Assembly: GCA_030390025.1 (NCBI GenBank)
Contig: CM059432.1
Location: 58,840,001 to 58,904,000 of the forward strand
DNA length: 64,000 nucleotides
Reading direction: 5' to 3'
Source: Squalus acanthias
Taxonomy: Eukaryota
Part shown: positions 5,481 through 62,560 of the stretch, piece after piece
How positions within the stretch are numbered: position 1 is the stretch's first letter
Layout of the letters: each line of letters begins with the position of its first letter
Made by a program: the position numbers and the translations under genes
Notes under the pieces: generated by a model
What the model saw: only the letters and a program-made list of their open reading frames with translations
Told to the model about the DNA's origin: nothing
The model's database searches: none

Positions 5481-6287
5481 CAGTCAGCATGGATTTGTTA
5501 AGGGAAGGTCGTGTCTGAATAACTTCATTGAATTTTTTGAGGAGGGTCGATGAGGGTAGTGCGTTTGATGTAGTCTATACGGATTTTAGCAAGGCTTTAG
5601 ATAAGGTTCCGCATGGCAAACTGGTCACAAAGTAAAAGCCCATAGGATCCAAGACAAAGTGGCAAGTTGGATCCAAAATTGGCTAGAGGCAGGAAACAAA
5701 GGGTAATGGTCGAAGAGTGTGTTTGTTTCTGGAAGGCTGTTTCCAGTGGGGTTCTGCAGGGCTCAGTACTGGGTCCTTGCTTTTTGTGGTATATATCAAT
5801 GATTTGGACTTGAATATAGGAAGTATGATTAAGTAGTTTGCAGATGATCCAAAAATTGGCTGAGTGGTTGGTAATGAAGAAAGCTGTAGACTGCAGGAAG
5901 ATATCAATGGACTGGTCAGGTGAGCAGAACAGTGGCAAATGGAATTCAATCTGGAGAAGTGTGAGGTAATGCACTTGGGGAGGGCTAACAAGGCAAGGGA
6001 ATACACAATAAATGGCAGGATACTGAAGTGCAGAAGATCAGAGGGACCTTGGAGTGCATATCCACAGATCCCTGAAGGTAGTAGGACCGGTAGATAAGGT
6101 GGTTAAGAAGGCATACAGGATACTTGCCTTATTAGCTGAGGCATAGAATATAAGCCATGATGTGGAGATGCCGGTGTTGGACTGGGGTGGACAAATGTGA
6201 GAAGTGGTGTTGTGCGACTTCTCACATAGAATATAAGAGCAAGGAGGTTATGCTTGAACTGTATAAAACACTAGTTAGGCCGCAGCT
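5479..6287 (+). mobile_element. CR1 LINE ORF2 fragment
   Basis: SQHGFVKGRSCLNN, DFSKA.DKVPH, QWQMEFNLEKCEVMHLG remnants. Confidence 0.85.
6155..6224. mobile_element. miniature Penelope-type fold-back insertion
   Basis: 13-bp TSD catagaatataag (6142-6154, 6225-6237); shares ggagatgccggtgttggactggggtggacaaa with 13409-13440; internal IR atgtgagaagt/acttctcacat. Confidence 0.75.
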
Positions 6288-7596: not shown

Positions 7597-8749
7597 GTAA
7601 GAATTAAATATGAAACTCTAACCAAAAGTTGAAAAATTACTTTCGTGGTGATTGTTTAATTAACTTGAACTTTAATTGTTGGCGCAATATTTTTGGTTCT
7701 GTGCTTAATGCTATTTCAACTCCTAATGATAGAACAAATTAACCTGGATGCTAATCAGATATAACTTTAACTCTTCAAGGCGTAATCATAACATCTTGAA
7801 GTTTTTATTTACATTTTGGAGAGAGACAAGTTTTGGCGTGCTTCCTCAATTCTGCTTCAAATGTAGAAATTTACAGGAATTCTGTATTTGTGCCTATTTT
7901 GTAAGGCTGGAACTACATCAATCCATTTCTAAAAGTCAGTTATCTTTAAAGTTCATATGATCTTAGCAAAAATATTAGTCATACAAAAAGTATTTCGGAA
8001 TACAGTTGTAATGTACATTTTTCAGCATATATCTAAAAACATAATCTTGAAGTGCTTTGTGTCATGGAAGGATTTCAAAATGTTAGTGGGCACAAGGACA
8101 AGTAATCCTAGGTGATGTACGTTTAAGTGTATATGTATTTGTGGTGTTGATGTATAAATCTATATATTTTCTTAAAACTCTTGCATACAGAATGCACCTT
8201 TTGTCGTGATTTTCGGTTGCTCTTGTGTGGACTTTTCCCGTTGTAAATTGTTATGTACTGTCATGAGTAATTGCATTCTCTAGCCATTAGATGGCCTGTG
8301 GACCAAAATTCTGAACTGTTTGTCAGCTCAGTCACCATTTTGTTTTTTCTTTATACATGAGGGGAGCTTGAAGGTAATTATATCTCCCTCGTCCTGGCTG
8401 CTGAAAGCAGCAAATTTAAGTTAAAATCTTCTATTTTGAAGCTTCTGGCTACTCTCCAGGCTGCCTTCAACCTTCTCCTGCCAGTGCTTGGTCGGCTTCA
8501 GCCTCTCACTGACTGTTCTTGTCATTGTGTACTTCTCTTGGCCCAATTTTCAGCCTTCTTTTTGCAGCCTCGCAGTCTTTGGTACCTTTCCCAGTCTTGG
8601 CCGGTATCTTCACTGCCTGCCCCCACTGGTCGGCATCTCCCCAGCTTGTTCTCAGCCTGCAGCTTGCTCCATGCCAACCCAGCAGCATTTTGGACCTAGG
8701 CCTCAGCAGTACGATTTCCAATGTCTTTGTTCTCCCACTTTTATTTGTG

Positions 8750-9385
8750 TATTTAAACCCGCTAAGTCTTTCTGCTCCTCTATCCCTTGTAAAGTGTCAC
8801 TATTCAGTGCACAAATCCTTCTCTTATCCTTCCTCCCAAAATATATCCCCTTACATTTTTCCCACAAAATTTCATTTGACATTTGTCTATCCAATCTACT
8901 AATGCGACTCTGTCCTCCTGAAGTGGCTTACAGGTGTTCTTCACATATGCTGGGGGGGCACCACAGTTTATATCCCTGCAGTGCAAGAAAAATCCATTAT
9001 TCACTACTTTTTGTTTTCTGTCCTTTAGTTTCCTATCCATGCTGCCAAATTCCCTTTTAATACAGTATACCTTAATTTTAATAACAGGCCTCTTATGTGG
9101 AACTGGCCTCCAATGTGGTATCTTATCAAGTGCCGTTTGAAAATCGATATACACGACATGTACACTTATCAATATTGTTATTTCCACTAAGAAATCTTAC
9201 TACATTTGTTAGACAGAACTTGCCTTTTACAAATCCATGCTGGCTGCCCTATGTCTTTCTATTATGGATTCTAGAAGCTTATGCACTACTAATATTAGGC
9301 TGACTGGTCTATAGTTAGCTTGTTTATCCCTTTCTCCCATTTTGAACAGACGTGCAACATTCACAACTTCCATATTGTATCCAAG
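8750..9385 (-). mobile_element. old CR1 LINE ORF2 fragment
   Basis: VYIDFQTALDKIPH and ANYRPVSL remnants on the minus strand. Confidence 0.75.
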
Positions 9386-12068
9386 GATGCTTGAATGATT
9401 ATACTCGAGCCTCCCTTCGTGCATGGTGCTTTTTCCACTTGAGTTCCATACAAAATATTCTGCATTAAATTCAAATTTTTAAACACTTACAGGAACTGGC
9501 AAAGTAATTTAGGACCTCTCTCTTCAGTACACTATTTATGCTTCATGCAGTACAATTGCATATTAAGTTAGTCACTTTTTGGGAGAGGGAAGAGCGTTTG
9601 TATATATTTTAGTTAATAAAAAATTGAGTAATAGCAGTTAGTATTTAGAACTTTCCGAAGACCAAGTACCAAAATTATTTCACTCTTAGTAATGTTCCAG
9701 CGCATTTTCTTCTTCACTCGACAAGAATGTGTGGCTACCGGAACTCCAATTGTAACCTAACATAAGTAGTAGGAACATGAGTAGGCTATTCGGCCCCTCG
9801 AGCCTACTCTGCCATTCATGGCTGATCTGATCTTGGCCTCAATGCCACTTTCCCGCCAGCTCCCCATAACCCTTGACTCCCCTGTAGCTCAAATATCTGT
9901 CTATCTCCACCATGAATATATTCAATGACTCCACCTCCACAGCTCTCTGGGGTAGAGAATTCCAAAGATTCACGACCTTCAGAGAAGAAATTCCTCCTCA
10001 TCTCAGTTTTAAATGGGCGACCCCTTATCCTGAAACTGTGCCCCCTAGTTCTAGATTCCCCCACGAGGGGAAACATCCTCCCTGCATCTACCCTGTCAAG
10101 CCCCCTCAGAATCTTATGTTTCAATAAGATCACCTCTCATTCTTCTAAACTCCAATGAGTATAGGCCCAACCTGCTCCACCTTTCTTCATAAGACAATCC
10201 CTTCATCTCTGGAATTAACCTAGTGAACCTTCTCTGAACTGCCTCCAATGCAAGTATATCCCTCCTTAAATAAAGAGACCAAAACTGCACACAGTACTCT
10301 GGGTGTGGTCTCACCAGCACCCTGTACAGTTGTAGCAAGACTTCCCTACTTTTATACTCCATCCCCCTTGCAATATCCCTTTGCAGACTCTTTGTGCCCT
10401 CCTCACAACTTGCTTTCCCACTATCTTTGTATCATCAGCAAATTTGGCTCCAGTACACACGGTCCCTTCATCCAAGTCATTAATATAGATTGTAAATAGT
10501 TGAGGCTCCAGCACTGATCCCTGTGGCACCCCACTAGTTACAGTTTGCCAACCTGAAAATGACCCGTTTATCCCGACTTTGTTTTCTGTTAGTTAGCCAA
10601 TCCTCTATCCATATTGCCCCCAACCCCGTGAGCTCTTATCTTGTGCAGTAACCTTTTATGTGGTACCTTATCGAATGCCTTCTGGAAATCCAAATACACT
10701 ACATCTACTGGTTCCCCTTTATCCACCCTGCTCGTTACATCCTCAAAGAACTCTAGTAAATTTGTCAAACACTATTTCCCTTTCATAAAACCATGTTGAC
10801 TCTGCTTGACTGCATTATGATTTTCTAAATGTCCTGCAATTACTTCCTTAATGATGGACTCCAGCATTTTCCCAAGACAGATGTTAAGCTAACTGGCCTA
10901 TAGTTTCCTGCTTTCTGCCTCCCTCCTTTCTTGAATAGGGGCATTACATTTGTGGTTTTGCAATCTGCTGGGACCTTGCCAGAATCCAGGGAATTTTGGT
11001 ACATTACAACTAACACATCCACTATCTCTGCAGCCACTTCTTTTAAGACCCTAGGATGTAGGGCATCAGGTCCAGGGGACTTGTCAGCCTTTAGTCCCAT
11101 TAGTTTGCCTAGTATTTTTCTTTAGTGATAGTCATTGTTTTAAGTTCCTCCCTCCCTATAGCCCCTTGATTATCAATCATTATTGGGATGCTTTTAGTGT
11201 CTTCTACCATGAAGACCGATACAAAATATTTGTTCAAAGTCTCTACCATTTCCCTGTTTCCCATTATAAATTCCCCAGTCTCATCCTCTAAGGGACCAAC
11301 GTTTACTTTAGCTACTCTTCCTTTTTATATACCTGTAGAAGCTCTTACTGTCTGGTTTTTATATTTTTTGCTAATTTACTTTCATAATCTATCTTCTCCC
11401 TCTATCATTTTTTTAGTCATCCTTTGCTGGTTTCTAAAAATTTCCCAATCCTCTGGCCTACCACTAATCTTCGCAACATTGTATGCCTTTTCTTTCAATT
11501 TGATACCATCCTTAACTTCCTTAGTTAGCCACGGATGGTTCATCCTTGTCGTAGAGTCTTTCTTTCTCACTGGAATAAACCTTTGCTGAGAGTTATGAAA
11601 TATCTCCTTAAATGTCTGCCACTGCTTATATACCATCTTACCCTTTAATCTATTTTCCCAGTCTACTTTAGCCAACTCTGTCTTCATACCTTTGTAATTG
11701 CCTTTATTTAAGTTTAGGACACTAGTTTCAGACCCAAGTTTCTCACCCTCAAACAGAATTTGAAATTCTATCATGCTATGATCACTCTTCCCGAGAGGAT
11801 CCTTTACTATGAGATCATTAATTAATCTTGTCTCATTACACATTACCAGATCTAAAATAGCCTTCTCCCTGGTTGGTTCCACAACGTATTGTTCTAAGAA
11901 ACCATCCCGTATACATTCTATGAACTCGTCCTCAAGGCTACCCTTGCCAATTTGATTTGTCCAATCTATATGAAGATTAAAATCGCCCACTATTATCGTA
12001 GTACCTTTTTTTACAAGCCCCTATTATTTCTTGATTTATACTCTGTCCTACAGTGTAACTTACTGTTA

Positions 12069-13143
12069 ACATAGAAACATAGAAGATAGGAGCAGGAGTA
12101 GGCCATTCGGCCCCTCGAGCCTGCTCCGCCATTCAATGCGATCATGGCTGATCATCCAAATTCAGTACCCTGTCCCTGCTTTCTCCCCATATCCCTTGAT
12201 CCCCTTAGCCTTAAGAAATATATCTTAACTCCTTCTTGAATATATTTAATGAATTGGACTCAACTGTCTTCTGTGGTAGAGAATTCCACAGGTTCACCAC
12301 TCTGGGTGAAGAAAATCCTCCTCATCTCAGTCCTAAATGGCTTACCCCTTATCTTTAGACTGTGACCCCTGATTCTGGACTCCCCCGCCATCGGGAACAT
12401 CCTTCCTGCATCTAGTCTGTCTAGTCCTGTTAGAATTTTATAAGTTTCAATGAGATCCCCCCCTCATTCTTCTAAACTCTAGCGAATACAAGCCCAATCG
12501 ATCCAATCTCTCTCCATACGTCATTCCTGCCATCCCAGGTATCAGTCTGGTGAATCTTCGCTGCACTCCCTCCATGGCAAGAATATCCTTCCTCAGATAA
12601 GGCGACCAAAACTGCACACACTACTCAAGGTGTGGTCTCACCAAGGCCCTGTACAACTGCAGCAAGACATCCTTGCTCCTGTACTCAAATCCTCTCGCTA
12701 TGAAGGCCAACATACCATTTGCCTTCTTAACCGCCTGCTGCACCTGCATGCTTACCTTCAGCGACTGGTGCACAAGGACACCCAGGTCTCGTTGCACTTC
12801 CCCTTTTCCCAATCTATTGCCGTTCAGATAATCTGCCTTCCTGTTTTTGCCACCAAAGTGGATAACCTCGCATTTATCCAAATTATACTGCATCTGCCAT
12901 GCATCTGCCCAATCACCCAACCTGCCCAAATCATGCTGGCGTTTCTCTGCATCCTCCTCACAACACACACGCCCACCCAGCTTTGTGTCATCTGCAAACT
13001 TGTAGATATTACATCTAGTTCCCTCGTCGAGATCATTAATATATATTGTGAATAACTGGGGTCCTAGCACCGATCCCTGCGGTACCCCACAAGTCACTGC
13101 CTGCCACTTGGAAAAAGACCCGTTTATTCCAACTCTTTGCTTC
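12069..13143 (-). mobile_element. 5'-truncated CR1 nested in the CR1 above
   Basis: own 3' tail (acatagaaacatagaagatagg) at 12069; ctgtta duplicated at 12063-12068 and 13144-13149. Confidence 0.85.
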
Positions 13144-13490
13144 CTGTTAGGGGACCTATAGACTACCCCCAGCAGTGACATCTTTCCCTTACTATTTCTT
13201 ATCTCCACCCAAACTGATTCTGCATCTTGATTTTTCTAAGCCAATATCATTTCTCACTACTGCACTGATCTCATCCTTTAACAGAGCTACCCCACCTCCT
13301 TTTCATTTCTGCCTATCCTTCGGAAATGTCAAATACCCCTGAATATTCAGTTCCCAGCCTTGGTCACTTTGCAACCGCATCCCTGCAATGGCTATCAGAT
13401 CATAATGCGGAGATGCCGGTGTTGGACTGGGGTGGACAAAATTGAGAGGTCGCACAACACCAGGTTATAGTCCAACAGTTTTATTTGAAA

Positions 13491-13532
13491 TCACAAGCTT
13501 TCGGAGCTATTGATTGCTCCTTCCTCAGATGA
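13491..13532 (-). ncRNA. minimal hammerhead motif, second copy (left arm)
   Basis: minus strand TCAT-CTGAGGA-A-GGAGC(aatcaata)GCTCC-GAAAGCTT-GTGA. Confidence 0.7.
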
Positions 13533-13970
13533 AGTAAATTAGATACAGAATCGCCAAAGCATATATAGATAGAAAACAAAGCATGTGTACTTTACAATTG
13601 CAGACCAATAAATTAAATCATCCTGACTATCTGCCGAGGTGTGATAAAGTTAATTAAGTCAGCCAGGAAGGTACCACATCAAAGACATAGCAAGATAATT
13701 TTCCCAGTAAAAAAGTAAAAAAATGTTAAAGCTTTTCGTTTTACATACAGACGGCAGCTTTTGACACGTTAGAACCCCTGCGACTACACCTCATTGTCTC
13801 AGTTGTATCTTGCTATGTCTTTGATGTGGTACCTTCCTGGCTGACTTAATTAACTTTATCACACCTCGGCAGATAGTCAGGATGATTTAATTTATTGGTC
13901 TGCAATTGTAAAGTACACATGCTTTGTTTTCTATCTATATATGCTTTGGCGATTCTGTATCTAATTTACT

Positions 13971-14012
13971 TCACCTGAGGAAGGAGCAATCGATAGCTCC
14001 GAAAGCTTGTGA
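13971..14012 (+). ncRNA. minimal type-I hammerhead ribozyme motif
   Basis: TCAC-CTGAGGA-A-GGAGC(aatcgata)GCTCC-GAAA-GC-T-T-GTGA: core boxes, 5-bp helix II, palindromic AGCT helix III, helix I TCAC/GTGA. Confidence 0.75.
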
Positions 14013-15109
14013 TTTCAAATAAAACTGTTGGACTATAACCTGGTGTTGTGCGACCTCTCAATTTTATCAGATCATACCCATTTGTTTCTATTTGTGCCGT
14101 CAACTCATCTATCTTGTTACGAATGCTGCGTGCATTCAGATAAAGAGCTTTTAATTTTGTCTCTTTACCATTTTTCCCTACTCTGACTCTATTTGCTGGT
14201 GCACGCTTATGTTCGTACGCTGTCTCCTCCTGTCACACTGGTTATAAATACCCCTGTCGCTACCCTGCACTATTGCCTTCTCCTTTCTCTTTGACTTTCT
14301 AAATTCCCCTTCACCTGAACCCTCCCCCCCACTATTTAGCTTAAAGCCCTATCTACAGCCCTAGTTATTTGATTTGCCAGGACACTGGTCCCAACATGGA
14401 TCAAGTGAAGGCCGTCCCAACACAACAGCTCCCTCTTTCCCCAGTACTGGTGCCAGTGGCACATGAATCGAAACCCATATCTTAAATATGATTTGAAACT
14501 ATCTGCAAAAATTGTTAGTGAGGCTTCTGCTAACGTCACTTGAATCAACTGTTAAGAGGTTTGAGAGTATAGCCTGTGTGACTCACTCTTAACATTTCTC
14601 CCCCCCCCCCCCCCCCCCCCCCCGGCCACACACACACACCTCCAAACTGTATGAAAGATGCCTGGCCTCCATTTGGCATTTCTACAATGGCTCAGTTAAG
14701 ATTGAAAGCTCCAGCACAAGAAATTGCATGAGCAGCCCTATACCTTGTTGCTATGTTATCACATACAAGTGATGAATTGCATCTATTTCAATGCATAAAT
14801 TCATGAGCAATGTCAATGTTCAAGCTCTGAGGTCATATTTGACTGTTTCCAGATGGCTATAGAGAGGGTTTCTATAATTGCCTGAGAAAATGATCAAAAT
14901 AGTGTAAAGATAAAATTATGGGGGGAAAAATCAACTAAAGAGGGTGACAAATCAAAGGAAATCAGCAATGGATCCAAATATAGAATATCTGCAGCATCCA
15001 ATAGACTAATGAATTGGCTATATGTAGTGTTAGTGAAAAGAGGCCAACCGATCAATTAATCAGTAGATGTCCCATGTTAACAGAAGCTTTTTCACAATCT
15101 GTGTGATGT

Positions 15110-18100
15110 GATAAATAGATTGGCATCGATAAGATTTAGATTAGCAATGAAGAGGAGCAAGGAACAATCTAGAGTGGAACTTCTAAACTGGAATAGGGCT
15201 AACTTCAATGGGATGCGAAAGGATCTAGCCAGGGTAAAATGGAACCAAAGACTGACAGGAAAAACTGTAACGGAACAATGGGTGATCTTTAAGGAGGAGA
15301 TGTTCTAAGTATAGGCTAGGTAAATTCCAACAAGAGGGAAGGGTAAGGGAACCAAAGCAAGGGCTCCTTGGATGACGAGTGAGATAGAGAAGATGATGAA
15401 ACAAAAAAAGAGTGTATGATGCATGTCAGGTGAATTCTTCAAGGGAGAAACAGACCAAATACAATAAGTTGAGAGGTGAAGTGAAGATGAAAATAAGATT
15501 GGCAAAGAGAGAATATGAGAGTAGAATGGTGGTTAACATAAAAGGGAACCCAAAAATCTTCTGCCGGCATGTAAACAGTAAGCGAGTAGTAAGAGGCGGG
15601 GTGGGGCCTATTAGGGAACAAAGAAGGTGATATATGCTTAGAAGCGCAGGGCAAGGCTAGAATACTCAATGAGTACTTTGTATCGGTGTTTACTAAGGAG
15701 GTGGACGCTGACAAAATATCGGTAGAAGTGGAAAAGGTAGAAGCAATGGAAGGGATAAAAATTGATAGGATGTACTAGAAAGGTTGGGTGTGTTTGAGTG
15801 GATAAGTCGCCTGGTCCAGATGGCTTGCATCCCAGGTTGCTAAGGGAATTGGGGGAGGAGATAGCGGAAGGGCTTGCCATAATTTTCCAATCTTCCCTAG
15901 ATGCGGGGGAGGTGCCTGAGGATTGGAAAGTGGCAAATGTGACACCATTGTTCAAGAACGGGTGCAAGGACAATCCTAGTAACTACAGGCTGGTCAGTTT
16001 AACATCAGTGGTGGGTAACGGTTTAGAAACAATAATCAAGGAAAAAATTAATGAGCACTTGGAGAGGTTTAAGCTAATTAAGGAGAGCCAACACGGATTT
16101 GTAAAAGGCAGATCCTGTTTGACTAATCTAATTGCATTTTTTGAAGAAGTAACAGGGAGGATTGATGTAGGGAATGCAATGGATGTTGTGTACATGGACT
16201 TTAGGAAGGCATTTGACAAAGTACCACATAGAAGGCTCGTTAACAAAATTGAGGCTCATGGAATAGGTGGGTCAGTGGCAGCTTGGATAAGGAATTGGCT
16301 TAAGGACAGAAAACAGCAAGTTGTGGTAAATGGCTGTTTTTCAGACTGGAGGATGGTAGACAGTGGTGTTCCATAAGGACATAAGAAAGAGCAGGAGTAG
16401 GCCATACGACCCCTCGAGCCTGCTCCACCATTCAATAAGATCATGGCTGATCATCGACCTCAACTCCACTTACCCGCCCGATCTCCATATCCCTTGATTC
16501 CCCTAGAGTCCAAAAATCAATCAATCTATCTCAGTCTTGAATATACTCAAAGACTTGCATTCACAGCCCTCTGGGGCAGAGAATTCCAAAGATTCACAAC
16601 GCTCTGAGTGAAGAAATTCCTCCTCATGTCAATCTTAAATGGCCTACCCCTTATCCTGAGACTATGCCCCCTAGCTCTAGACACTCCAGCCAGGGGAAAC
16701 AATCTCTCAGCATCTACCCTGTCAATCCCCTTCAGAATCTTGTATGTTTCAATGAGATCACCTCTCATTCTTCTAAACTCCAGAGAGTATAGGCCCATTC
16801 TACACAATCTCTCATCATAGGACAGCCCTCTCATCCCAGGAATCAATCTAGTGAACCTTTGTTGCACCGCCTCCAAGGCAAGTATATCCTTCCTTAGATA
16901 AGGAGACCAAAACTGTGCACAGTACTCCAGGTGTGGTCTCACCAAGGCCCTGTACAATTGTAGCAAGACTTCCTTACTCTTATACTCCAACCCCCTTGCA
17001 ATAAAGGCCAACATGCCATTTGCCTTCCTTATTGCTTGCTGTACCTGCATGCTAGCTTTCTGTGTTTCTTGCACGAGGACACCCAAATCTCTCTCAAAAA
17101 ACCAATATTTGAAAGTTTCTCACCATTTAAAAAATATTCTGTTTTTTCTCTTCTTCCTACCAAAGTGAATAGCCTCACATTTCCATCTGCCACCTTACTG
17201 CCCACTCATGTAGTCTATCTATATCCCTTTGCAGATTCTTTGTGTTCTCCTCACAGCTTACTATCCCACCTAGCTTTATATCATCAGCAAACTTGGATAC
17301 ATTACATGCCTCGGTCCCTTCATCTCGGTCATTTATTATAGACTTTAAATAGCTGAGGCCCCAACACTGATCCTTGCTGCACCCCACTAAGTTACAGTCC
17401 CCAAGGGTCAGTGCTGGGGCCACTGCTTTTTTTGATATATATAAATGACCTGGATATTGGAATACAGAGTAGAATTTCTAAATTTGCCGATGACACCAAA
17501 CTTGGGGGTGTGGCAAACCGTGAGGATGATACCAATTGACCGCAACAGGACACAAAAGCTAGCAGAATGGGCAGACAAGTGGCAGATGGAATTTAATACA
17601 CAGAAGTGTGAGGTGATGCATTTTAGCAGAAGGAATAGGGAGGGGCAATATACACTTAATGGCACAGTTTTAAAAAGTATGCAGGGACAGAGGGACCTGG
17701 GAGTTAATGTGCTTACGTCCCTGAAGGTGACAGGACATATTGAGAGAGTGGTTAGCAAAGCATATGGGATCTTGGGCTTCATAAATAGAGGTATTGAGTA
17801 CAAAAGTGGAGAAGTTATGCTGAACCTTTATAAAGCGCTGGTTAGGCCACAACTGGAGTATTGCATCCAGTTCTGGTCACCACACTTTAGGAAGGATGTG
17901 AAGGCCCTTGAGAGGGTGCAGAGTAGATTTACCAGAATGGTTCCGGGGAAGCTGGATTTGTTTTCATTAGAGCAAAGGAGGTTGAGGGGTGATTTGATAG
18001 AGGTGTACAAGATTATGACAGGTTTGGATAGGCTAGACGGGGAAAAGCTGTTCCCACTAGTTGATGGTACAAGGACTAGGGGACACAGATTTAAGGTTTC

Positions 18101-18352
18101 GGGCAGGAGATACAGGAGGGACGTGAGGAAAAACTTTTTTACGCAGTGAGTGGTGAGGACCTGGAACTCGCTGCCGACGGAAGTGGAGACACTCAATGTT
18201 TTCAAGGGGAGACTGGATAGGCACTTGAGGGAATAAACTTGCAGGGCTACGGGGATAGAGCGGGGGAATGGGACTGACTGGATTGCTCTACAGAGAGCCA
18301 GCACGGATTCGAATGGCCGCCTCCTGTGCCGTTATGATTCTTTGACTCTGAC
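15110..18352 (+). mobile_element. CR1 LINE ORF2 and 3' UTR, split by an antisense CR1
   Basis: ORFs 15798..16376 (ends SGVP) and 17445..18149; RT resumes PQGSVLGP at ~17400. Confidence 0.88.
16373..17397 (-). mobile_element. 5'-truncated CR1 nested antisense in the host RT
   Basis: 3' tail ataaggacataagaaagagcaggagtaggcc at 16373; ORF 16547..17086. Confidence 0.86.
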
Positions 18353-18769
18353 TCTGGTGTATTTGCTATTTTTCCATAGGAAATATATTGCAAATGTCAC
18401 ATTAGCTTTATGGTAATTTGGAACCCGGAATGAAATTTTACAGCAAGGATCCGTTATAGCCATTTAACAATTCATCTTTACTCTGAAAGTTTATGCAGCA
18501 GAGATTTGTTTCACCTGTGAAGCCCTCATCAGTACAGCAAACCAGTACAAAAAAACTCTCATCATCTAACTTAGCAGTAGTTATGCACAAGGCATTGGCA
18601 GTTTATCTTGATACATGTGTATCTGAAACAAACATCTTACTAATCAAAAATGCCAAGATGAACTGGAAGACTGATGGCTGATTCTGCCTGTCCTTTTTAT
18701 AAGCCAGTAGAAATCTGAAGTAGACTTGAGGTAATGAATTAATTTGTTTACTCTCTTTATTAATACTAG

Positions 18770-18942
18770 GTGACTTCAGGATATAAGGCCAAAAGTATAG
18801 CAGCTGCCCTTCCATCTCCATTTTTAGAGCCAATACTATCAGTCTCTCTAATGGAAGATAGTGAGCTAAGGCAGCTGGTACTACACATTCTACACAGTCT
18901 TATTGATCGTCATGAGAACAAGGCAAAACTCAAAGGAATGAG
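18770..18942 (+). CDS. EFR3A: EFR3A internal exon (VTSGYKAKSIAAALPSPFLEPILSVSLMEDSELRQLVLHILHSLIDRHENKAKLKGM-R)
   Basis: tactAG acceptor, GTAAAC donor; 173 bp, phase 0 to 2; resembles human VTSGYKAKTIVTALPGSFLDPLLSPSLMED... Confidence 0.93.
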
Positions 18943-19794
18943 GTAAACATTTTTTTGTTAGAATAAGTTATTACATATGCATGCTTGTATATTTTATTTG
19001 CATGTGAATTTCAGACTCCACTTCAATGAGAAACATAAACTTGCTGTTGCAATGTGGATTATCGCCCAGTGACAGTCTCTTAAATGTGACCGTTTTTTAA
19101 AAAAAAACATTATTTGTAACCGACAAATTCTGGTTGTTTTTTTATGTGGGGATACAAATCATTCCAGATTTTGACCAAACTAAAGTCTCAAACAGTCTCT
19201 TTTAATGAGAATAGACTTCTCCATGCAAAGTTACATTTGAATATTGAATTACTATGGCAAATTATCTTTACTGACATTTCTGGAATGCTATAAAATAAAT
19301 ATTTTGTTCTTGCGTGAATAAAAAAGGAACTTTTAGATATGACTTGACTTCCCTACACCTTGCATACAGTTCCCTCACATGGATTATATATTTTTTCCCT
19401 CCTATCCATGTAAGATGCAGTTAATTGTATATGTGTAGGAACATCTTTCCTGTAACAATAATGATTGACTTCTCATGGATCATGTGTCTTCAATCCAAAA
19501 TTACAACACTAGCCCTTTAAAGTATAAATTAGTGCCTGGAGGACTGAAAGTTGAGAATACGTTGAGGGGCAAAGCTCACAAAGTATAGCAATTCAGTTAA
19601 CTAGTCTCCCTTTTTCCACTACTGCAGGGAAAAGGTACTTGAGAAGCATCGAGAGAGATAGGGATTTTATAGAATCAGCAAATACTGCTCCATTTGTTCT
19701 GTATGACATTGAATACTTCATTAAGGATCGGTAAAAGTCCAGATGCTATATGGGTGTAAACTGTTTTGGTTGATGAGACAACCGTGCTTTAGAT

Positions 19795-20048: not shown

Positions 20049-23000
20049 ATCATAGAATCATAGAAAGTTACAGCATGGAAGGAGGACATTTCGGCCCATC
20101 GTGTCCACGCCGGCCAACAAAGAGCTATCCAGCCTAATCCCATTTCCCAGCTCTTGGTCCGTAGCCCTGCAGGTTGGAGCATCCCAAGTGCACATCCAAG
20201 TACTTTTTAAATGTGGTTAGGTTTCCTGCCTCCGCCACCCTTTTTCAGGCAGTGAGTTCCAGACCCCCACAACCCTCTGGGTGAAGAAATTTCCCCTCAA
20301 ATCCCCTCTAAACCTTCCCCCAATTACTTTAAATATGTGCCCACTGGTTTTTGACCCCTCTGCTAAGGGAAATAGGTCCTTTCTATCCACTGTATCTGTG
20401 CCCCTCATAATTTTATACACCTCAATAAGGTCTCCCCTCAGCCTCCTCTGTTCCAAGGAAAACAGACCCAGCCTATCCAGTCTTTCTTCATAGCTAAGAT
20501 TCTCTACTCCCGGCAACATCGTTGTAAATCTCCTCTGTACCCTCTCTAGTGCAATCACATCTTTCCTGTAATGTGGTGACCAGAACTGCACGCAGTACTC
20601 TAGCTGAGGCCTAACTAGTGTTTTATACAGTTGAAGCATAACCCCCCCCCCCCCTGCTCTTGTATTCTATGCCACGGCTAATAAAGGCAAGCATTCTGTA
20701 TGCCTTCTTAACCACCTTATCTACCTGGCCTGCTACCTTCAGGGATCTGTGGACATGCACTCCAAGGTCCCTTTGTTCCTCTACACTACTCAGTGTCCTA
20801 CCATTTAATGTATATTCCCTTTCCTTGTTAGCCCTCCCCAAATGCATTACCTCACACTTCTCCGGATTGAATTCCATTTGCCACTGTTCTGCCCACTTGA
20901 CCAATTTATTGATATCTTCCTGCAGTCTACAGCTTCCTTCTTCAGTATCAACCACACAGCTGATTTTAGTATCATCTGCAAACTTCTTAATCATACCCAC
21001 TATATTCAAGTCTAGATCATTGATATATACCACAAAAAGCAAGGGACCTAGTACTGAGCCCTGTGGAACCCCACTGGAAATAGCCTTCCAGTCACAAACA
21101 CCCATCAACCATTACCCTCTGCTTCCTGTCTCCGAGCCAGTTTTGAATCCAACTTGACACTTTGCCCTGGATCCCATGGGCTTTTAACTTCGTGACCAGT
21201 CTGCCATGTGGAACCTTAGCAAAAGCCTTGCTAAAGTCCATATACACTACATCAAATGCACTACCCTCCTTGTTACCTCCTCAAAAAATTCAATCAAGTT
21301 TGTCAGACATGACCTTCCCTTAACAAATCCATGCTGACTGTCCTTGATTAATCCATGCCTTTCTAAATGAAGATTTATCCTGTCCTTCAGAATTCTTTCC
21401 AATAATTTTCCCACCACCGAGGTTAGGCTGACTGGCCTGTAATTGGTCTATCCTTTTCTCCCTTTTTAAACAAGGGTACCACATTAGCAGTCCTCCAGAA
21501 CCACACCTGAAGCCAGAGAGGATTGAAAAATGATGGACAGGGCCTCTGCTATTTCCTCTTTTGCTTTGCTTAACAGCCTGGGATACATTTCATCCGGGCC
21601 TGGGGATTTATCTACTTTTAAAGCTGCTAAACCCCTTAATACTTCCTCTCTCCACTCTGTTTATTTCATCCAATATTTCACACTCCTCCCCCCTGATAGC
21701 AATGTCTGCTCCGCCCCTCTCCTTTGTGAAAACAGACGCAAAGTATTCATTAAGAACCCTACCAACGTCTCCCGTCTCCACATACACACATTACCCTCAT
21801 GATCTCTAATAGGCCCTACCCTTTCTTTAGTTATCCTCTTACTCTTAATATATATATATAAAACATCTTTGGGTTTTCCTTGATTTTACTTGCCAAGAAT
21901 TTTTCATGCTCTCTCTTTGCTTTCCTAATATCCTTTTTAATTGCACCCCTGCACTTTCTGTACTCGACTACATTCTGGAGTATTTAATCCTCGGTATCTG
22001 TCATATGCCTCCCTTTTTTTCTTTATCCTACCCTGCATGTCTCTAGACATCCAGGGGGCTCTAGATTTGTTAGTCCCACCTTTTTTCTTTAAGGGCACAT
22101 ATTTGGTCTGAACCCTCTGGATCTCCTCCTTGAATGCCTCCCATTACTCTGACACTGATTTACCTTCAAGTAACTGTTTCCAGTCCACTGGCTAAATCCC
22201 CTCTGAGCTTAGCAAAATTTGCTTTTCCCCAATTTAGAATTTTTATTCCTGGTCTATCCTTGTCCTTTTCCATAACTACCTTAAATCTAACAGAATTATG
22301 GTCACTAGCACCAAAATGCCCAGCTTCATTCCCTAAAACTAGTCTAGAACCGCCCCCTCCCTTGTTGGGCTTGCTACATACTGGCTAAAAAATTTCTCCT
22401 GGGTGCATTTTGGGAATTCCGCACCCTCTACCCTTCACACTAATTTTATCCCAGTTAATATTGGGGTAGTTGAAATCCCCTACTATTACTGCCCTATAGT
22501 TTTTGCACTTCTCAGAAATTTGTCTACATATTTGTTCTTCTATCTCCCTCTCACTATTTGGGGGTCTGTAGTATACTCCCAGCAGTGTGATCGCCCCTTT
22601 TTTGTTTTTCAGTTCAACCCATATGGCCTCATTTGATGATCCCTCCTCACAGCTGTAATAGTTTCTTTCATCAATACCGCGACCCCCCCTCCCTTTTTAC
22701 CTCCCTCTCTATCCCGTCTGAAAATCCTGTAACCAGGAATGTTGAGCTGCCATACCTGCCCCTCTTTCAGCCACGTCTCTGTAATAGCTATAATATCACA
22801 GTCCCAAGTATCTACCTGTGCCCTCAGCTCATCTGCCTTGTTTGCTATACTCCTTGCATTGAAGTATATACCATTTAGTACAGGCAAACCTCCTTGTTGA
22901 CTACTATCTAGCCCTTGATTCCTCTGTCCTTCCAATTTACTTTCTATGTTTTTGTTTTCCAATTCCAGTTTTTCTTCCCTCCCTATTGACTCTATACTTA

Positions 23001-37330: not shown

Positions 37331-37471
37331 ATGCAAAAGCAAAATATTGCAGATGCTGGATATCTGAAATTAAAAACAGAAAATGCTGGAAATACTCAGC
37401 AGGTCAGGCAGCATCTGTGGAGAGAGAAACAGAGTTAACATTTCAGGTCGATGACCTTTCATCCGAACAAT
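37331..37471 (-). mobile_element. short Penelope-type repeat with degenerate hammerhead (37434-37468)
   Basis: minus strand GTT-CGGATGA-A-AGGTC(atc)GACCT-GAAATGT-T-AAC; TSD ctctttccca/ctctttcgca; same family as 50204-50409. Confidence 0.72.
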
Positions 37472-38903: not shown

Positions 38904-41288
38904 TAGAATCATAGAAAGTTACAGCACGGAAGGGGCCCATCGTGTCCGCACCGGCCAACAAAGAGCTATCCAGCCTTATCCCACTTCCCAGCTCTTGGTC
39001 CGTAGCCCTGCAGGTTAGAGCATCCCAAGTGTACATCCAAGTACTTTTTAAATGTGGTTAGGGTTCCTGCCTCTACCACCCTTTCAGGCAGTGAGTTTCA
39101 GACCCCCACAACCCTCTGGGTGAAGAAATTTCCCCTCTAGTGTTTTATACAGTTGAAGCATAACCCCCCCCCCCCACCTGCTCTTGCCTTTATTAGCCAT
39201 GGCATAGAATACAAGCATTCCGTATGCCTTCTTAACCGCCATATCTACTTGGCCTGCTACCTTCAGGGATCTGTGGACATGCACTCCAAGGTCCCTTTCT
39301 TCCTCTACACTACTCAGTGTCCTACCATTTAATGTGTATTCCCTTTCCTTGTTAGAACATAAGAAGTAGGAGCAGGAGTAGGCCATACGACCCTTCGGGC
39401 CTGCTCCGCCATTCAATAGGATCATGGCTGATCCGAACCTAGACTCACGTCCACTTCCCTGCCCGCTCCCCATAACCCTTAATTCCCTTATCAGCTAGGA
39501 AACTGTCTATCTCTGTTTTAAATTTATTTAATGTTGCAGCTTCCACAGTGCTCTGAGGTAGCAAATTCCATAGATTTACTACCCTCTGAGGAGAAACTTC
39601 TTCACTCATCTCAGTTTTGAAATGGCCGCCCCTTATTCTAAGATTATGCCCCCTAGTTCTAGTCTCACCCATCAGTGGAAACAGCCACCCGATCAAGCCC
39701 TCTCTCAATCTTTTATGTTTCGATAAGATCGCCTCTCATTCTTCTGTATTCCAATGAGTAGAGGCCCAACCTACTCAACCTTTCCTCATAAGTCAACCCC
39801 CTCATCTCCGGAATCCACCGAGTGAACCTTCTCTGAACTGCCTCTAGAGCAAGTATATTTTTTCTTAAATATGGAAACCAAAACTGTACGCAGTATTCCA
39901 GGTGTGGCCTCACCAGTACCCTGTATAGCTGAAGCAAGACTTTCCCTGCTTTTATACTCCATCCCCCTTGCAATAAAAGCCAAGATTCCATTGGCCTTCC
40001 TGATCACCTGCTGTACCTGCATACTAACCTTCTGTGTTTCATGCACCAGGACCCCTAGATCCCTTTGTACTGTAGCACTTTGCAGTTTCTTTCCATTTAG
40101 ATAATAACTTGCTCTTTGATTTTTTTCTGCCAAAGTGCATAACCTCACACTTTCCAACATTATATTCCATCTGCCAAATTTCTGCCCACTCACTTAGCCT
40201 GTCTATGTCCTTTTGCAGGTTTTTTATGTCCTCCTCACTCACTGCTTTCCCTCCCATCTTTGTATTGTCTGCAAACTTGGATACGTTGCACTTGGTCCCC
40301 TCCTCCAAATCGTTAATATAGATTGTAAAGAGTTGGGGTCCCAGCACTGACCCCTGCGGAACACCACTAGTTACTGATTGCCAACCCGAGAATGAACCAT
40401 TTATCCCAACTCTCTGTTTTCTGTTAGATAGCCAATCTTCCACCCATGCCAGTATATTACCCCCAATCCTGTGATTTTTTTTTTTATCTTGTGCAGTAAT
40501 CTTTTGTGTGGTACCTTGTCAAATGCCTTTTGGAAGTCCAAATACACCACATCCACTGATTCCCCTTTATCCACCTTGTTTGTTACGTCCTCAAAGAATT
40601 CGAGCAAACTTGTCAAGCATGATTTCCCCCTCATAAAACCATGCTGACTCTGTCCGATTAAGTTATGCTTATCCAAATGTCCTGTTACTGCTTCCTTAAT
40701 AATGGACTCCAACAATTTACCAACCACAGATGTTAGGCTAACTGGTCTATAGTTTCCAGCCTTTTGTCTACCTCCCTTTTTTAAATAAGGGTGTTACATT
40801 GGCAGTTTTCCAATCTGCTGGGACCTTTCCTGAATCCAGGGAGTTTTGGAAAATTACCACCAATGCATCCGCAAACCCTACCGCAACTTCTCTCAAGACC
40901 CTAGGATGTAAGCCATCAGGTCCAGAGGATTTATCCGCCTTAAGTCCCATTATCTTACCGAGTACCATCTCCTTAGTGATTTTAATTGTGTTTAGCTCCT
41001 TCCCCCCCCCCCCATAGCCCCTTGTTTGTCCAGTGTTGGGATATTTTTAGTGTCCTCTACTGTAAAGACTGATACAAAATATTTGCCCTCCCCAAATGCA
41101 TTACCTCACACTTCTCCGGATTGAATTCCATTTGCCACTGTTCTGCCCACTTGACCAATTTAATGATATCTTCCTGCAGTCTACAGCTTCCTTCTTCAGT
41201 ATCAACCACACAGCTGATTTTAGTATCTTCTGCAAAATTCTTAATCATACCCCCTATATTCATGTCAAGATCGTTGATATATACCACA
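38904..41288 (-). mobile_element. CR1 3' part (sibling of the 20049 copy) inserted into L2
   Basis: TSD aaaatca (38897-38903, 41289-41295); nearly identical to 20050-21035 apart from deletions and an insertion. Confidence 0.85.
39355..41084 (-). mobile_element. CR1 nested in the CR1 above
   Basis: own tail aacataagaagtaggagcagg; ORFs 40039..40443 and 40401..40727; host ccttgtta|gccctcccc rejoins across it. Confidence 0.85.
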
Positions 41289-42039
41289 AAAATCAGAGAT
41301 GCGCAAGAGGAAGCAGCAGCAGCAGCGGATGAGCTGAGGCAGGGGCACAGATGAGCGAAGTTACGGAGCTGGAAGCAGGCGGTCTTGGTGCTGGATCGGA
41401 TATGTGGTTGGAAGCTCATCTCAGGGTCAAATAAATGGCAAGGTTGCAAATGGTCTGGTTGAGCCTCAGACAGTGACCAGGGAGAGGGATGGAGTTGGTG
41501 GCTAGGGAATGGAGTTTGTTCGGTCTTCCCAATATTTAGTTGGAGGAAATTTGTGATGGTGTTTGATTTCTTTTTCATTGGTAAGTTGGCCTACTGTTAC
41601 AACTGCAAATGTTGCAATGCTTTAGCTACAGTCAGCAGAATTTAAAGAAAAATTCCCAGGAATGGCACAGCAAGCAGTAGCCAACTCCAAAAGTAGTTAA
41701 TTACCAATTTCCTCAAGGCAAAATATTTAGCTTTTCAGTGCCAAAAGGAGGATATATATTAAGATTAAATGACCTTCCTTAGAAAAACTGCAGTGTAGTA
41801 ACAAAAGGCTTTTGCTGCACACTCTAACTGCCTATCTGACATTTAAGATTTCCTTCAGCTTAGTGTCAACAAAACTGAAGCTATCCATTTTGGTTCCTAC
41901 CAATAAATGCATGCCTCTGGCCTTGACATCGTGAACTCCCTTTCTCCAACTGCACCTCCGGCCAAATCCTGTTGCAAAACTGTAGCGTACTACTCAACTC
42001 TACTTCCTTCCCTGGTTCTATTGCAACATTTGCAATTCT

Positions 42040-49022: not shown

Positions 49023-49150
49023 ATTGCCCAAGTCCCTGGAGACACAAGACAAAAGCTGTCTTTTCTTGCAAAACAAGATTGCAGATGCACTGGCTGGCAG
49101 TGGCTACAGTGTGGACAGGCTGTCTGTGCCATATGTGCCCCAAGCTACAG
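49023..49150 (+). CDS. EFR3A: EFR3A internal exon (LPKSLETQDKSCLFLQNKIADALAGSGYSVDRLSVPYVPQAT)
   Basis: attaatAG acceptor, GTAGGA donor; 128 bp, phase 2 to 1; overlaps ORF-track 48997..49200. Confidence 0.95.
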
Positions 49151-50203
49151 GTAGGAGTGTGGTTGTTCCAATCTGTAGAATATACAGGTGTATGTGTTAA
49201 TGATGTATCCCTGGTAAAGGCCAAGCCACATGAAACTTGCAACCACAATGAGTCATTACCAGCTGACCTTTCACTTGAGTTTCTGATAGCAAGGCAGCAA
49301 AAATGACTAAGCCTTTTCTGATTTCTATGCATTAGATGAGACTGGTTCCAGAAAGGGTTTTTTAATAGTCATAATAGCCCAATAATAAATCTTGCTTTCA
49401 AGTAAGTTGCACAATGTAGTGGGAAAAGCCACAGACAAGTTACTTAAACCCAACATTTTTTTTCTGCATGATGTAACTGGTGGGGGTGCAGAATTCTGAT
49501 GCTCAGTCAGTAAATTCATTTAGTTTGTCAATTTGTGGCATGATGTGAAGAAAGTACTCACTACATTGTGGGTTCAAGCCCTACTCCAGAGACCTAACCA
49601 CATAATCTTCCACTATAGTGGCAGTACTGAGGGAGTGCTGCACTCAGAGGTGCCATCTTTTGGATGAGACCTTCTCTGGTGGATGTTTCTTTTTATTTGT
49701 TCATGGGATGTGGGCCTCGCTTACAAGGCCAGCATTTACTGGCTATCCTTAATTGCCCTTGAGAAGGTGGTGGTGAGCCGCCGCCTTAAACAGCTGCGAT
49801 CCGTGAAGTGAAGGTACTCCCACAGTGCTGTGAGAGGGAGTTCCAGGATTTTGACCCAGCGACAGTGAAGGAACGGCGATATACTTCTAAGTCAGGATGG
49901 TGTGTGACTTGGAGGGTAACTTGGAGGTGGTGGTGTTCCCATGCGCCTGCTGCCCTTGTCCTTCTAGGTGCTAGAGGTCATGGGTTTGGGAGGTGCTGCC
50001 GAAGAAGTCTTGGCGAGTTGCTGCAGTGCATCTTGTGGAGGGTACACACTGCAGCCGCAATGCGCTGGCAGTGGAGGGTGTGAATGTTTAAGGTGGTGGA
50101 TGGGGTGCCAATCAAGCTGGCTGCTTTGTTCTGGGTGGTGTCAAGCTTCTTGAGTGTTGTTGGAGCTGCACTCATCCAGGCAAGTGGACAGTATTCCTTA
50201 ACA

Positions 50204-50409
50204 CGATAGCAAAATACTGCGGATGCTGGAAATCAGAAATAACAACAGAAAACGCTGGAAAAACTCAGCAGGCCAGGCAACATCCGTGGAGAGAGAAAGA
50301 GAGTTAACGTTTCAGGTCGAAGGGTTTCGACCTGAAACGTTAACTCTCTTTCTCTCTCCACGGATGTTGCCTGGCCTGCTGAGTTTTTCCAGCGTTTTCT
50401 GTTATTTTT
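50204..50409. mobile_element. Penelope-type perfect fold-back element
   Basis: 78-bp perfect arms 50244-50321 / 50326-50403, 4-nt loop; 14-bp TSD agtattccttaaca (50190-50203, 50410-50423). Confidence 0.85.
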
Positions 50410-52156
50410 AGTATTCCTTAACATCCTGACTTGTGCCTTGTAAATGGTGGAAAGGCTTTGGGGAGTCAGGAGGTGAGACACTCGCCGCAGAATACCTAGC
50501 CTCTGACCTGCTCTTGTGGCCACAGTATTTATGTGGCTGTTCCAGTTAAGTTTTTTGTCAATGGTGACCCCTACCCCTAGGATGTTGAAGGTGAGGGATT
50601 CAGCGATGGTAATCCCATTGAGTGTCATGGGGAGGTGACTAGACTCTCTCTTGTTGGAGATAGTCATTGCCTGCCACTTGTGTGGTGCATGTGTTAGTTG
50701 CCACTTATCAACCAAAGCCTGAATATTGTCCAGATCCTGCTGCACGTGGGCATGGACTGCTTCATTATCTCAAGAGTTGCGAATGGAACTGAACGATATG
50801 CAATCATCAGCAGAACATCCCCACTTCTGACCTGGAATGTCATTGAAGCAGCTGAAGATGGTTGGGCTGAAGATACTGCCCTGAGGAACTCCTGCAATGA
50901 TGTCCTGGGGCTGAGATGATTGGTCACCAGCCACCACAACCATCTTCCTTTGTGCTAGGTATGACTCCAACCAGTGGAGAGTTTTCCCCCTGATTCCCAT
51001 TGACTTCAATTTTACTAGGGCTCCTTGATGCCACACTCGGTCAAATGCTGCCCTGATGTCAAGGACAGTCACTCTCTCTCCTCACCTCTCGAATTCAGCT
51101 CTTCTGTCCATGTTTGGACCAAGGCTGTAATGTGGTCTAGAGCCGAGTGGTCTTGGCAAAACCCAAACTGGGCATTGGAGAGCATGATATTGGTGAGTAA
51201 GTGCCACTTAATAGAACCGACACCTTCCATCACTTTGATGATTGAGAGTAGACTGATGGAGCGGTAATTGGCCGGATTGGATTTGTCCTGCTTTTTGTGG
51301 ACAGGCCATACCTGGGCTATTTTCCACTTTGTAAGGTAAATGCCAGTGTTGTAGCTCTACTGGAACAGCTTCGCTAGAGGTGCGGCTAGTTCTGGAGCAC
51401 AAGTCTCCAGCACTACAGCTAGGATGTTGTTGGGGCCCATAGCTTTTGCTGTATCCAGTGCTTGATATCATGAGGAGTCAAATTGGCTGAAGACTGGCTT
51501 CTGTGATGGTGGCGACCTCGGGAAGAGACAGAGATGGATCATCCACTTGGCACTTCTGGCTGAAGATGGTTGCAAACACTTCAGCTTTGTTTTTGCACTC
51601 ACGTGCTGGGTTCTGCCATCATTGAGGATGGAGATATTCATGTAGCTGCCTCCTCCCGTTAGTTGTTTAATTGTCCACCACCATTCATAACTGGATGTGG
51701 CAGGACTGCAGAGCTTTGATCTGATCCGTTGGTTGCGGTATCACTTAGCTCTGTCTATAACATGCTGCTTCCACTTTTTAGTATGCATGTAGTCCTGTAT
51801 TGTAGTTTCAGAGTTGGCACCTCAATTTTAGGTACACCTGGTGCTGCTCCTGGCATGCTCTTCTACGTTCCTCATTGAACCAGGGTTGGTCCCCTAGCTT
51901 GATGGTAATGGTAGTGTGAGGGATATGCCGGGCCATGAGGTTACAGATTGTGGTGGAATACAATTCTGCTGCTGATGGCCTACAGCGCCTCCTGGAAGCC
52001 CAGTTTTGAGCTGCTAGATCTGTTCTGAATCTATCCCATTTAACACGGTAGTGCCACACAACCTGATGGAGGGTATCCTCAGTGTGAAGACAGGACTTTG
52101 TCTCCACAAGGACTGTGGGGTGGTCACTGCTACCAATACTGTCATGGGCAGATGCA

Positions 52157-61839: not shown

Positions 61840-62560
61840 GGCCCGGATTTTGTGGTTTTAATGACTGCGAAACTGAAAGCGTTCGGCATTATTACTCTGA
61901 AACCTACAGCAACCTCTGCCATCCGCACGTGCAGTTGAATGCGGAAATCCAGAAGTTGCTGTCAGTGATTCCCCGCTTCTCCACATGGTGCGCTGTTGAA
62001 GTCCTCGCAGATGGAAATCTTAGAAATTACTTGAATTGATGTGAACTTCCACTTTTTACGCTCTAATCTCACTGTAAAAAAAACCCGAACAAGTTAAGCC
62101 TTGTTGAATGATGTGTAACTGGGCTTTTAACGGCGTACTAAGTCATAATTACTGATGAGCAACCTCTCGGACCCTGAAAAACGAATTTTATATTTGTGAA
62201 ATGTCAAATTTCTCCATTATGATAAAAATTCCGTAGATTTAAAAAAAAAAAAAATTATTTCAGCTTCTACCTTAATCCCATGTGTATGTCCCAATTTTTA
62301 TTTCGCTCTTTGTAAAATGATTAAAAAGTGAAGGAATCGGTGCTTTTTATTTCCTGGTTTGCTGTTTGAGAATTCTTCAATGTGATTGATGACATCACTG
62401 TTACTGGACACCAGAGATCCCCTATAGATGACTTCAGAATGAAATTAAAATTGGGACAGTTGTAATCCACGCCACAGAGATCGCTAAATCTTTGTAGGCA
62501 GCTTTCTTCGAGGTCAGCGGCGAATGCCGTCACTTCACCGCTGACCGCAAAATCCGGGCT
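61840..62560. mobile_element. Harbinger-like MITE
   Basis: TIR ggcccggattttgtggt / accgcaaaatccgggct; TSD unclear. Confidence 0.58.

Follow-up and report, generated by a model that had tools for sequence, protein, structure and literature searches.

An intron of EFR3A in Squalus acanthias contains a 684-base hairpin (13393..14076) that carries two hammerhead motifs on opposite strands, which raises the question of what kind of element this is, how it was inserted and whether either ribozyme could act in the pre-mRNA. We studied the hairpin within a window of 64,000 nucleotides (contig CM059432.1, positions 58,840,001 to 58,904,000), and all coordinates given here are those of the window. The hairpin is very probably a dead-on-arrival insertion of a Penelope-like element (PLE), composed of two 5'-truncated, hammerhead-bearing terminal repeats (pLTRs) placed head to head, with both hammerheads predicted to be masked.

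The host gene was identified by protein matches and exon order. Five shark proteins each align to nine exon stretches, in order and on the + strand, and the best matches of the exon at 18770-18943 are shark EFR3A proteins (98% to P0001); six EFR3A exon ORFs received no Pfam name, and a PDB search with one of them returned nothing. The exon matches delimit an 11,173-bp intron on the + strand with GT...AG ends (7597..18769), and within it the hairpin is the sole inverted repeat at an E value below 1e-10. The left flank of the element passes into a LINE fragment with a reverse transcriptase (RT) match; we take the LINEs at this locus to be CR1. Three contig pieces (X5 record 12 and X8 records 23 and 24), with 17-19 differences, match this flank up to 13404 and then stop, while the consensus of the loose ends at 13376 shows a word resembling the target site duplication (TSD) followed by CC, as in the right flank and not as in the tail. 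Because these pieces and the 13376 consensus represent paralogous empty sites, the 12-mer that brackets the element can be regarded as target-derived.

The original observation of inverted arms with two mismatches, a 108-bp spacer and a 12-bp TSD was borne out. The arms, 13439-13697 on the minus strand and 13806-14064 on the plus strand (sense to EFR3A), are 259 bp long, 1 bp shorter than first given, and differ at 13511/13992 and 13529/13974; a repeat search stretches them to 263 bp at the cost of a third mismatch. The direct repeat at 13393-13404 and 14065-14076 is perfect over its 12 bp (chance ~6e-5 for the positions searched), and its left copy is part of the old host LINE. An overhang is present on the left side only, as had been noticed; it spans 13405-13438 and measures 34 bp, or 33 bp, the earlier figure, when the first base of the TSD is assigned to the arm. 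We annotate it as a PLE tail, the 3' end of the minus-strand copy, and it matches the tail of a mini copy at 6156-6195 at 95%. The 108 bp between the arms (13698-13805) have the expected size but are not a neutral loop. Three contigs have a loose end at 13697 that runs on into the reverse complement of 13793-13805, and the spacer is therefore the 5' extension of the plus-strand copy, an assignment also based on contig depth. The unit thus consists of a 367-bp untailed copy (spacer and right arm, plus strand) head to head with a 293-bp tailed copy (left arm and tail, minus strand). Six-frame translation revealed no ORF in the element, including the 367 bp of the plus copy and spacer. A TATA-like word lies at 13934-13943, with its mirror in the other arm, ~30 bp upstream of helix I of the hammerhead, and an internal start there would yield an RNA that lacks the antisense arm; pLTRs of Adineta are reported to contain similar TATA/Inr motifs (PMC3846280).

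Each arm holds one hammerhead core with a 5-bp helix II, a palindromic AGCT and a downstream AATAAA, just as originally described. In the plus copy (13971..14012), CTGAGGA occupies 13975-13981 and is followed by an extra A at 13982, GAAA lies at 14001-04 and AGCT at 14004-07. Helix II comprises 5 bp (13983-87/13996-14000) and is closed by an 8-nt loop, helix I comprises 4 bp (13971-74/14009-12), and position 17 is T14008, within a CUU triplet, an anatomy that supports the cut predicted after 14008. The AATAAA at 14018-23 starts ten bases beyond position 17, has a GU-rich stretch ~20 nt further on and is a candidate intronic poly(A) signal. The mirror hammerhead occupies 13491..13532 on the minus strand, from 13528, with its own AATAAA (13480..13485) as a candidate signal, and 447 bp separate the two cores. 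A C-to-T change private to the minus copy (13529) makes the first pair of helix I a U-G pair; at this position, the right-arm base accounts for 392858 of 392939 of the X5 depth. In the plus copy, loop II (13988-13995) includes a 6-nt palindrome, ATCGAT, that the left arm lacks.

A scan for hammerhead motifs with a helix II of at least 5 bp returned three in the window compared to 0.07 per shuffled window (30 shuffles), namely those of the two arms and a third at 39586. This third motif and a hammerhead-like match at 62152 were dropped since they have no palindrome. The hammerhead search that had been proposed was thus positive with the motif scan but not with Rfam, which gave no hammerhead at gathering in the window and none among six matches at E up to 10; Rfam hammerhead models presumably expect a helix III. 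Rfam's best match, the plant miRNA model MIR169_8 (E 3.9e-8, far below gathering), was rejected as a hairpin artefact. Taken alone, the hammerhead region has no folding advantage over shuffled sequences (z 0.94, -1.07, 0.65, and -0.79). The core of CUGANGA and GAAA...UH, together with helices I and II, is present, with 38 of 40 alignment cells paired, and two-sided covariation is seen in 0 of 10 pairs of the four-sequence alignment.

The motif fits the class of minimal hammerheads (min-HHRs) described in PMC4209133, which is characterized there by an extra base between positions 9 and 10.1, a G10.1-C11.1 pair and a palindrome at 15.2-16.2. All of these marks are found in our element, as A13982, G13983-C14000 and AGCT 14004-14007, and the absence of a helix III loop, the 4-bp helix I and the pairing of motifs on opposite strands are also alike. 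According to the same paper, such opposite-strand pairs lie 100-700 bp apart, and min-HHRs show no cleavage as monomers and low cleavage as dimers. Helix II differs, with 5 bp here and 7-8 bp in the Schistosoma families, and sharks are apparently not named among the hosts in that paper; supplementary alignments of PMC4209133 and of 10.64898/2026.07.22.740005 may list this motif. The literature gave no usable rate for a CUU triplet.

We then asked what the inverted arms would do to the ribozymes in an RNA. The element folds at about -500 kcal/mol, and the probability of helix II in the plus copy is ~1e-19 in the presence of the left arm versus 0.37-0.74 without it, in support of the original prediction that the duplex would mask this copy; the minus copy is predicted to be masked too, its helix II probability being near 1e-16 in the full hairpin. 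The right arm is paired with a probability of 0.98-0.997 at 8/8 transcript prefixes, values that describe the equilibrium folding of prefixes and not kinetics, and the AATAAA lies inside the predicted duplex. Whichever strand is transcribed, synthesis of the antisense arm comes before that of the sense arm. An inert hairpin, and no working ribozyme or poly(A) site, would therefore be expected in the EFR3A pre-mRNA. Both hammerheads are therefore predicted by these foldings to be locked in the 259-bp duplex in any read-through RNA. As for the cleavage as dimers that had been suggested for such motifs, the two hammerheads of this locus sit on opposite strands and consequently cannot form an active dimer within one transcript. 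For the isolated motifs, folding gives -23.5 kcal/mol for the active dimer, -36.9 kcal/mol for the best dimer and -26.0 kcal/mol for two monomers, and the ATCGAT palindrome in loop II favors the noncatalytic dimer. Given that no other inverted repeat of this strength exists in the intron, some A-to-I editing of the hairpin is plausible.

Copies of the family were found in public contigs. Four of the 21 listed runs were aligned to 13100-13830 (731 of the 1701 bases searched) at 85% likeness, a level at which diverged copies drop out; one of them, X14, is RNA only by guess and was assembled as contigs. The aligned records numbered 10,503 and 23,536, and summed contig depth is not to be equated with copy number. 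In the runs of organism A (X5 and X14), summed depth is large over tail, arm and spacer alike and remains high across 13700-13824, while in organism C (X8) depth is confined to 13400-13525 and falls almost to zero from 13550 onward; X21 contributed no more than 14 partial reads. The contigs show a high-copy family in the host species that comprises the whole arm and the spacer. Organisms A and C have only the 3' 125 bp in common, the 5' body (13550-13805) being confined to organism A runs, and this contrast suggests a lineage-specific subfamily or an exchange of 5' bodies.

The contigs also reveal how other copies are built. Fold-back joints were seen at 13459>13719, 13472>13775 and 13500/13535 on opposite strands (one contig each where counted), and go-back joints, such as 13473>13405, occur in other copies; the joints elsewhere are those of variable truncation and partial tandems. 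In the 40 of 50 variant rows considered, the catalytic boxes, helix II, AGCU, position 17 and AATAAA are all free of changes. Variants concentrate instead in loop II (13515 and deletions at 13513-13514) and in helix I (13529). Loose ends at 13507 (22 and 170 contigs) correspond to a sister form in which N7 is C and loop II has 3 nt, and the one at 13510 (5 contigs) changes one helix II pair to G-U; 661 more loose ends and 36,827 further pieces lie outside those examined. The bases at 13442 and 13448 are the same in both arms and represent the minority state among family contigs, consistent with a single template or a single source locus. None of the listed contigs of an independent sample spans 13393-14076.

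The original prediction called for a linked ORF with RT and GIY-YIG domains, and none was found for this family. Among the 125 window ORFs of 88 amino acids or more, there was no match to GIY-YIG and none to a transposase family. A 26-nt pLTR pattern had no match in viral or metagenome contigs, and the exact hammerhead pattern had none in viral contigs. A 20-nt tail pattern matched two bacterial sequences (L003 and L004), which were dropped as chance because they show no likeness beyond the pattern, and the only match of a 31-amino-acid frame through the tail, a repetitive protein of 4818 amino acids without the motifs sought, was dropped as unrelated. A locus search of viral contigs based on P0123 gave 12 pattern matches, of which none was confirmed.

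With N7 and loop II freed in the hammerhead pattern, two metagenome contigs of one family (L001 and L002) were recovered, and in these, PLE RT and GIY-YIG pieces stand beside a relative of our hammerhead. Their likeness to the element extends over only 44 bp, at and about the hammerhead; helix I, which was absent from the search pattern, and the downstream AATAAA are also in common. L001 carries an inverted RT piece, and in L002 the hammerhead lies ~750 bp after the stop of the endonuclease. The L002 ORF is 44-47% identical to RT-bearing proteins, and a Foldseek search with its model placed I-TevI GIY-YIG domains in the top three rows, at a best E value of 0.033 (above E 0.001); the ORF has no Pfam name, and a PDB sequence search with it gave only designed WD40 proteins. 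These coding neighbors have the CX2-5CxxC linker of Neptune/Nematis and not of Poseidon. By their sequence, L001 and L002 appear to tie the hammerhead type, not the element's own family, to a coding PLE, and the 44-bp likeness could be convergence within the class. The two contigs (L001 1-1050 and L002 1-1470) represent one rearranged PLE family of the Neptune/Nematis type with 677 bp in common at 99.6%; an antisense piece of the ORF linker lies inside their hammerhead-bearing repeat, preceded by inverted RT in L001 and by the sense end of the endonuclease in L002.

A window scan for inverted arms of at least 11 bp with a nearby direct repeat gave five matches, two of them without tail structure. 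One is a mini fold-back of the same family as our element (6142..6237), with a 40-bp tail, 11-bp arms, an 11-bp spacer and a TSD of up to 13 bp, leaving 70 bp between the TSDs; a paralogue of its host LINE (20593-20753) has the insertion site once. The start of its untailed copy coincides with the 5' strand of the stem-loop predicted for the tail. Another belongs to a second hammerhead-bearing family (50190..50423) and has a 34-bp tail, arms of ~84 bp, a 4-bp spacer and a 14-bp TSD; its junction falls within helix II, and its plus copy has a 4-bp helix II, a UUCG loop and an ACGU palindrome. A solo relative of this family with a mutated core, CGGAUGA, is found at 37338..37451. In 3/3 fold-backs of the window, the untailed copy exceeds the tailed one in length, by 108, 11 and ~4 bp, the tailed and untailed copies of the last case being assigned from hammerhead anatomy. 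The count covers the fold-backs of the window and not the contig joints, in which the tailed arm cannot be told from the other.

These features are those of PLE insertions. In published descriptions (PMC8557442 and PMC3846280), a PLE unit has a pLTR with an inverted 5'-truncated copy beside it, TSDs and, at one end, a tail of 30-40 bp; the tail is reported in PMC11167929 as well. Our element and its mini copy show inverted or partial-tandem pLTRs with tails of 34 and 40 bp at one end. The claim of a noncoding, hammerhead-bearing retroelement of the PLE type is thus supported by the insertion architecture and by the fit to the min-HHR consensus. We propose that a PLE protein with RT and GIY-YIG domains, supplied in trans, would have nicked both strands 12 bp apart at an AT-rich site, that the 3'-OH at each nick would have primed reverse transcription of the element RNA, at the tail end in one case and at the pLTR end in the other, and that both cDNAs would have stopped early and then been joined. 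Snap-back of a single cDNA fits poorly, since the shorter copy has the tail and the longer one does not. For head-to-head repeats, PMC3846280 instead favors self-priming on an antisense template.

A bolder version, which we offer tentatively and regard as rather doubtful, is that both cDNAs are primed on one RNA at the staggered nicks, that the RT primed at the tail follows behind and displaces the cDNA ahead of it, that the tailed copy never extends further 5', and that auto-masking makes intronic insertions tolerable. If the tail-primed RT trails on one RNA, the untailed copy is expected to be the longer one, as in all of the fold-backs of the window (n=3). The occurrence of the tail at either end of PLE units (PMC8557442) counts against the rule that the tailed copy is never longer. 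The integration step of PLEs is called unresolved by both PMC8557442 and PMC11167929.

The main competitor to a truncated PLE insertion is a dedicated nonautonomous family, SINE- or retrozyme-like, with a borrowed PLE end and a 5' body of its own, which we consider a real if less probable possibility. It would account for the sharing of the 3' 125 bp with organism C while the sequence from 13550 onward is abundant in organism A runs only, as well as for a 367-bp plus copy without coding remnant, and nonautonomous PLE derivatives are on record (PMC8557442 and 10.64898/2026.07.22.740005). A coding PLE with a long, fast-evolving 3' region would look alike, however, as the distance between endonuclease stop and hammerhead in L002 illustrates, and the locus has no tandem array and a hammerhead that is minimal and not canonical. 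Long, near-perfect inverted arms with a short noncoding spacer and a TSD, and no Rfam hammerhead match, might equally describe a MITE or Foldback-type DNA transposon in which hammerhead-like words are incidental. This reading is largely refuted and highly improbable, because the repeats are not terminal, having the overhang on one side; the ends are not fixed across copies, arm length (259 versus 11 bp), junctions and TSD length (12 versus up to 13 bp) differing between our element and the mini copy; the spacer continues one arm; and no transposase was seen among the window ORFs. Least probable of all is an assembly or library fold-back artefact. It would explain a near-perfect long inverted repeat that no listed contig of an independent sample spans, but would not produce a perfect TSD, two arm-specific differences and a one-sided tail, nor the same design at two other sites of the window and in contig joints.

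A functional role of the insertion was weighed in the same way. The sense core is intact, the AATAAA has its GU-rich stretch downstream, and the hairpin is alone in its strength in the intron, so that the plus hammerhead might cut the EFR3A pre-mRNA, or the AATAAA end it early, in a manner tuned by the duplex or by editing. We think such cis-regulation very unlikely. The antisense arm is transcribed first and the right arm is predicted to be paired at every prefix; in folding energy, the active dimer lies 13 kcal/mol above the most stable dimer and also above two monomers; the min-HHRs of PMC4209133 had no activity as monomers and little as dimers, and the motif of PAc, a Poseidon PLE of Anolis, needed its protein (PMC11167929); and no sign of conservation at an orthologous site was obtained. 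A dead-on-arrival PLE insertion remains the most likely reading of the locus.

Among known systems, the canonical EN+ PLE unit Pen2a_Av (PMC3846280; see also PMC8557442) is close in its head-to-head pLTRs, one-sided tail, TSD and 5' truncation. The tail is 34 bp here and 31 bp in Pen2a, and the TSD is 12 bp here and 8-10 bp there; our element, in contrast to the unit as described, has no ORF, no direct pLTR pair and no junction palindrome, and both of its copies are cut short no more than 367 bp from the 3' end. PAc (Frangieh et al. 2024, PMC11167929) bears on the proposed mechanism: its protein is reported to cut and extend both strands at AT-rich sites, with RT starting at two sites that bound the tail, and to be required for hammerhead cleavage, while cleavage is not required for insertion in vitro. 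Our element resembles PAc in its AT-rich target and in a tail lying between two apparent RT starts, and, more weakly, in a stem-loop predicted with low support to form with the tail (z -1.9 and -0.8), whose loop includes the pLTR end. The two differ in coding: the PAc ORF begins within its hammerhead and the PAc tail is coding sequence, whereas the frames around our hammerhead are closed. Non-LTR retrozymes (PMC7229834 and 10.64898/2026.07.22.740005) are likewise noncoding, a few hundred base pairs long, PLE-related, low in GC and intronic, with type-I hammerheads; they are arranged head to tail with mostly canonical motifs, whereas ours is a single head-to-head insertion with a minimal motif and a tail. 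Our literature search found no dedicated paper on shark Penelope/Neptune fold-backs, supplements being outside its scope.

The insertion was originally called recent, a term that holds in relation to its host LINE and not as a figure in years. With the epaulette-shark rate of 7e-10 per generation (PMC10587355), the two differences in 259 bp correspond to ~5.5 million generations (0.7-20), provided that both postdate the insertion. The insertion would be younger if RT errors contributed, and older if gene conversion acted between the arms.

The insertion pattern was already published between 2013 and 2021 and the ribozyme class in 2014, and the locus itself is ordinary, one of many shark PLE end-fragments. 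Its use lies in annotation, where such hairpins should be recorded as PLE remnants and not as MITEs or miRNA precursors, and in the length difference between copies with and without a tail, a countable prediction on PLE integration. If double priming is true, thousands of shark copies would allow a test of the integration step from sequence only.

Two further repeat arrangements were observed in the window. A LINE segment at 20688-21041 has 96% identity to a second copy ~18.5-20 kb away (39212-39355 / 41082-41295), which is split by a 1.7-kb insertion; the segment is younger than most repeats of the window. Two LINE copies at 42215-43922 and 50004-51942, in opposite orientation, ~6-9 kb apart and 83-91% alike over many blocks, flank the EFR3A exon at ~49024-49149 and could pair across it.
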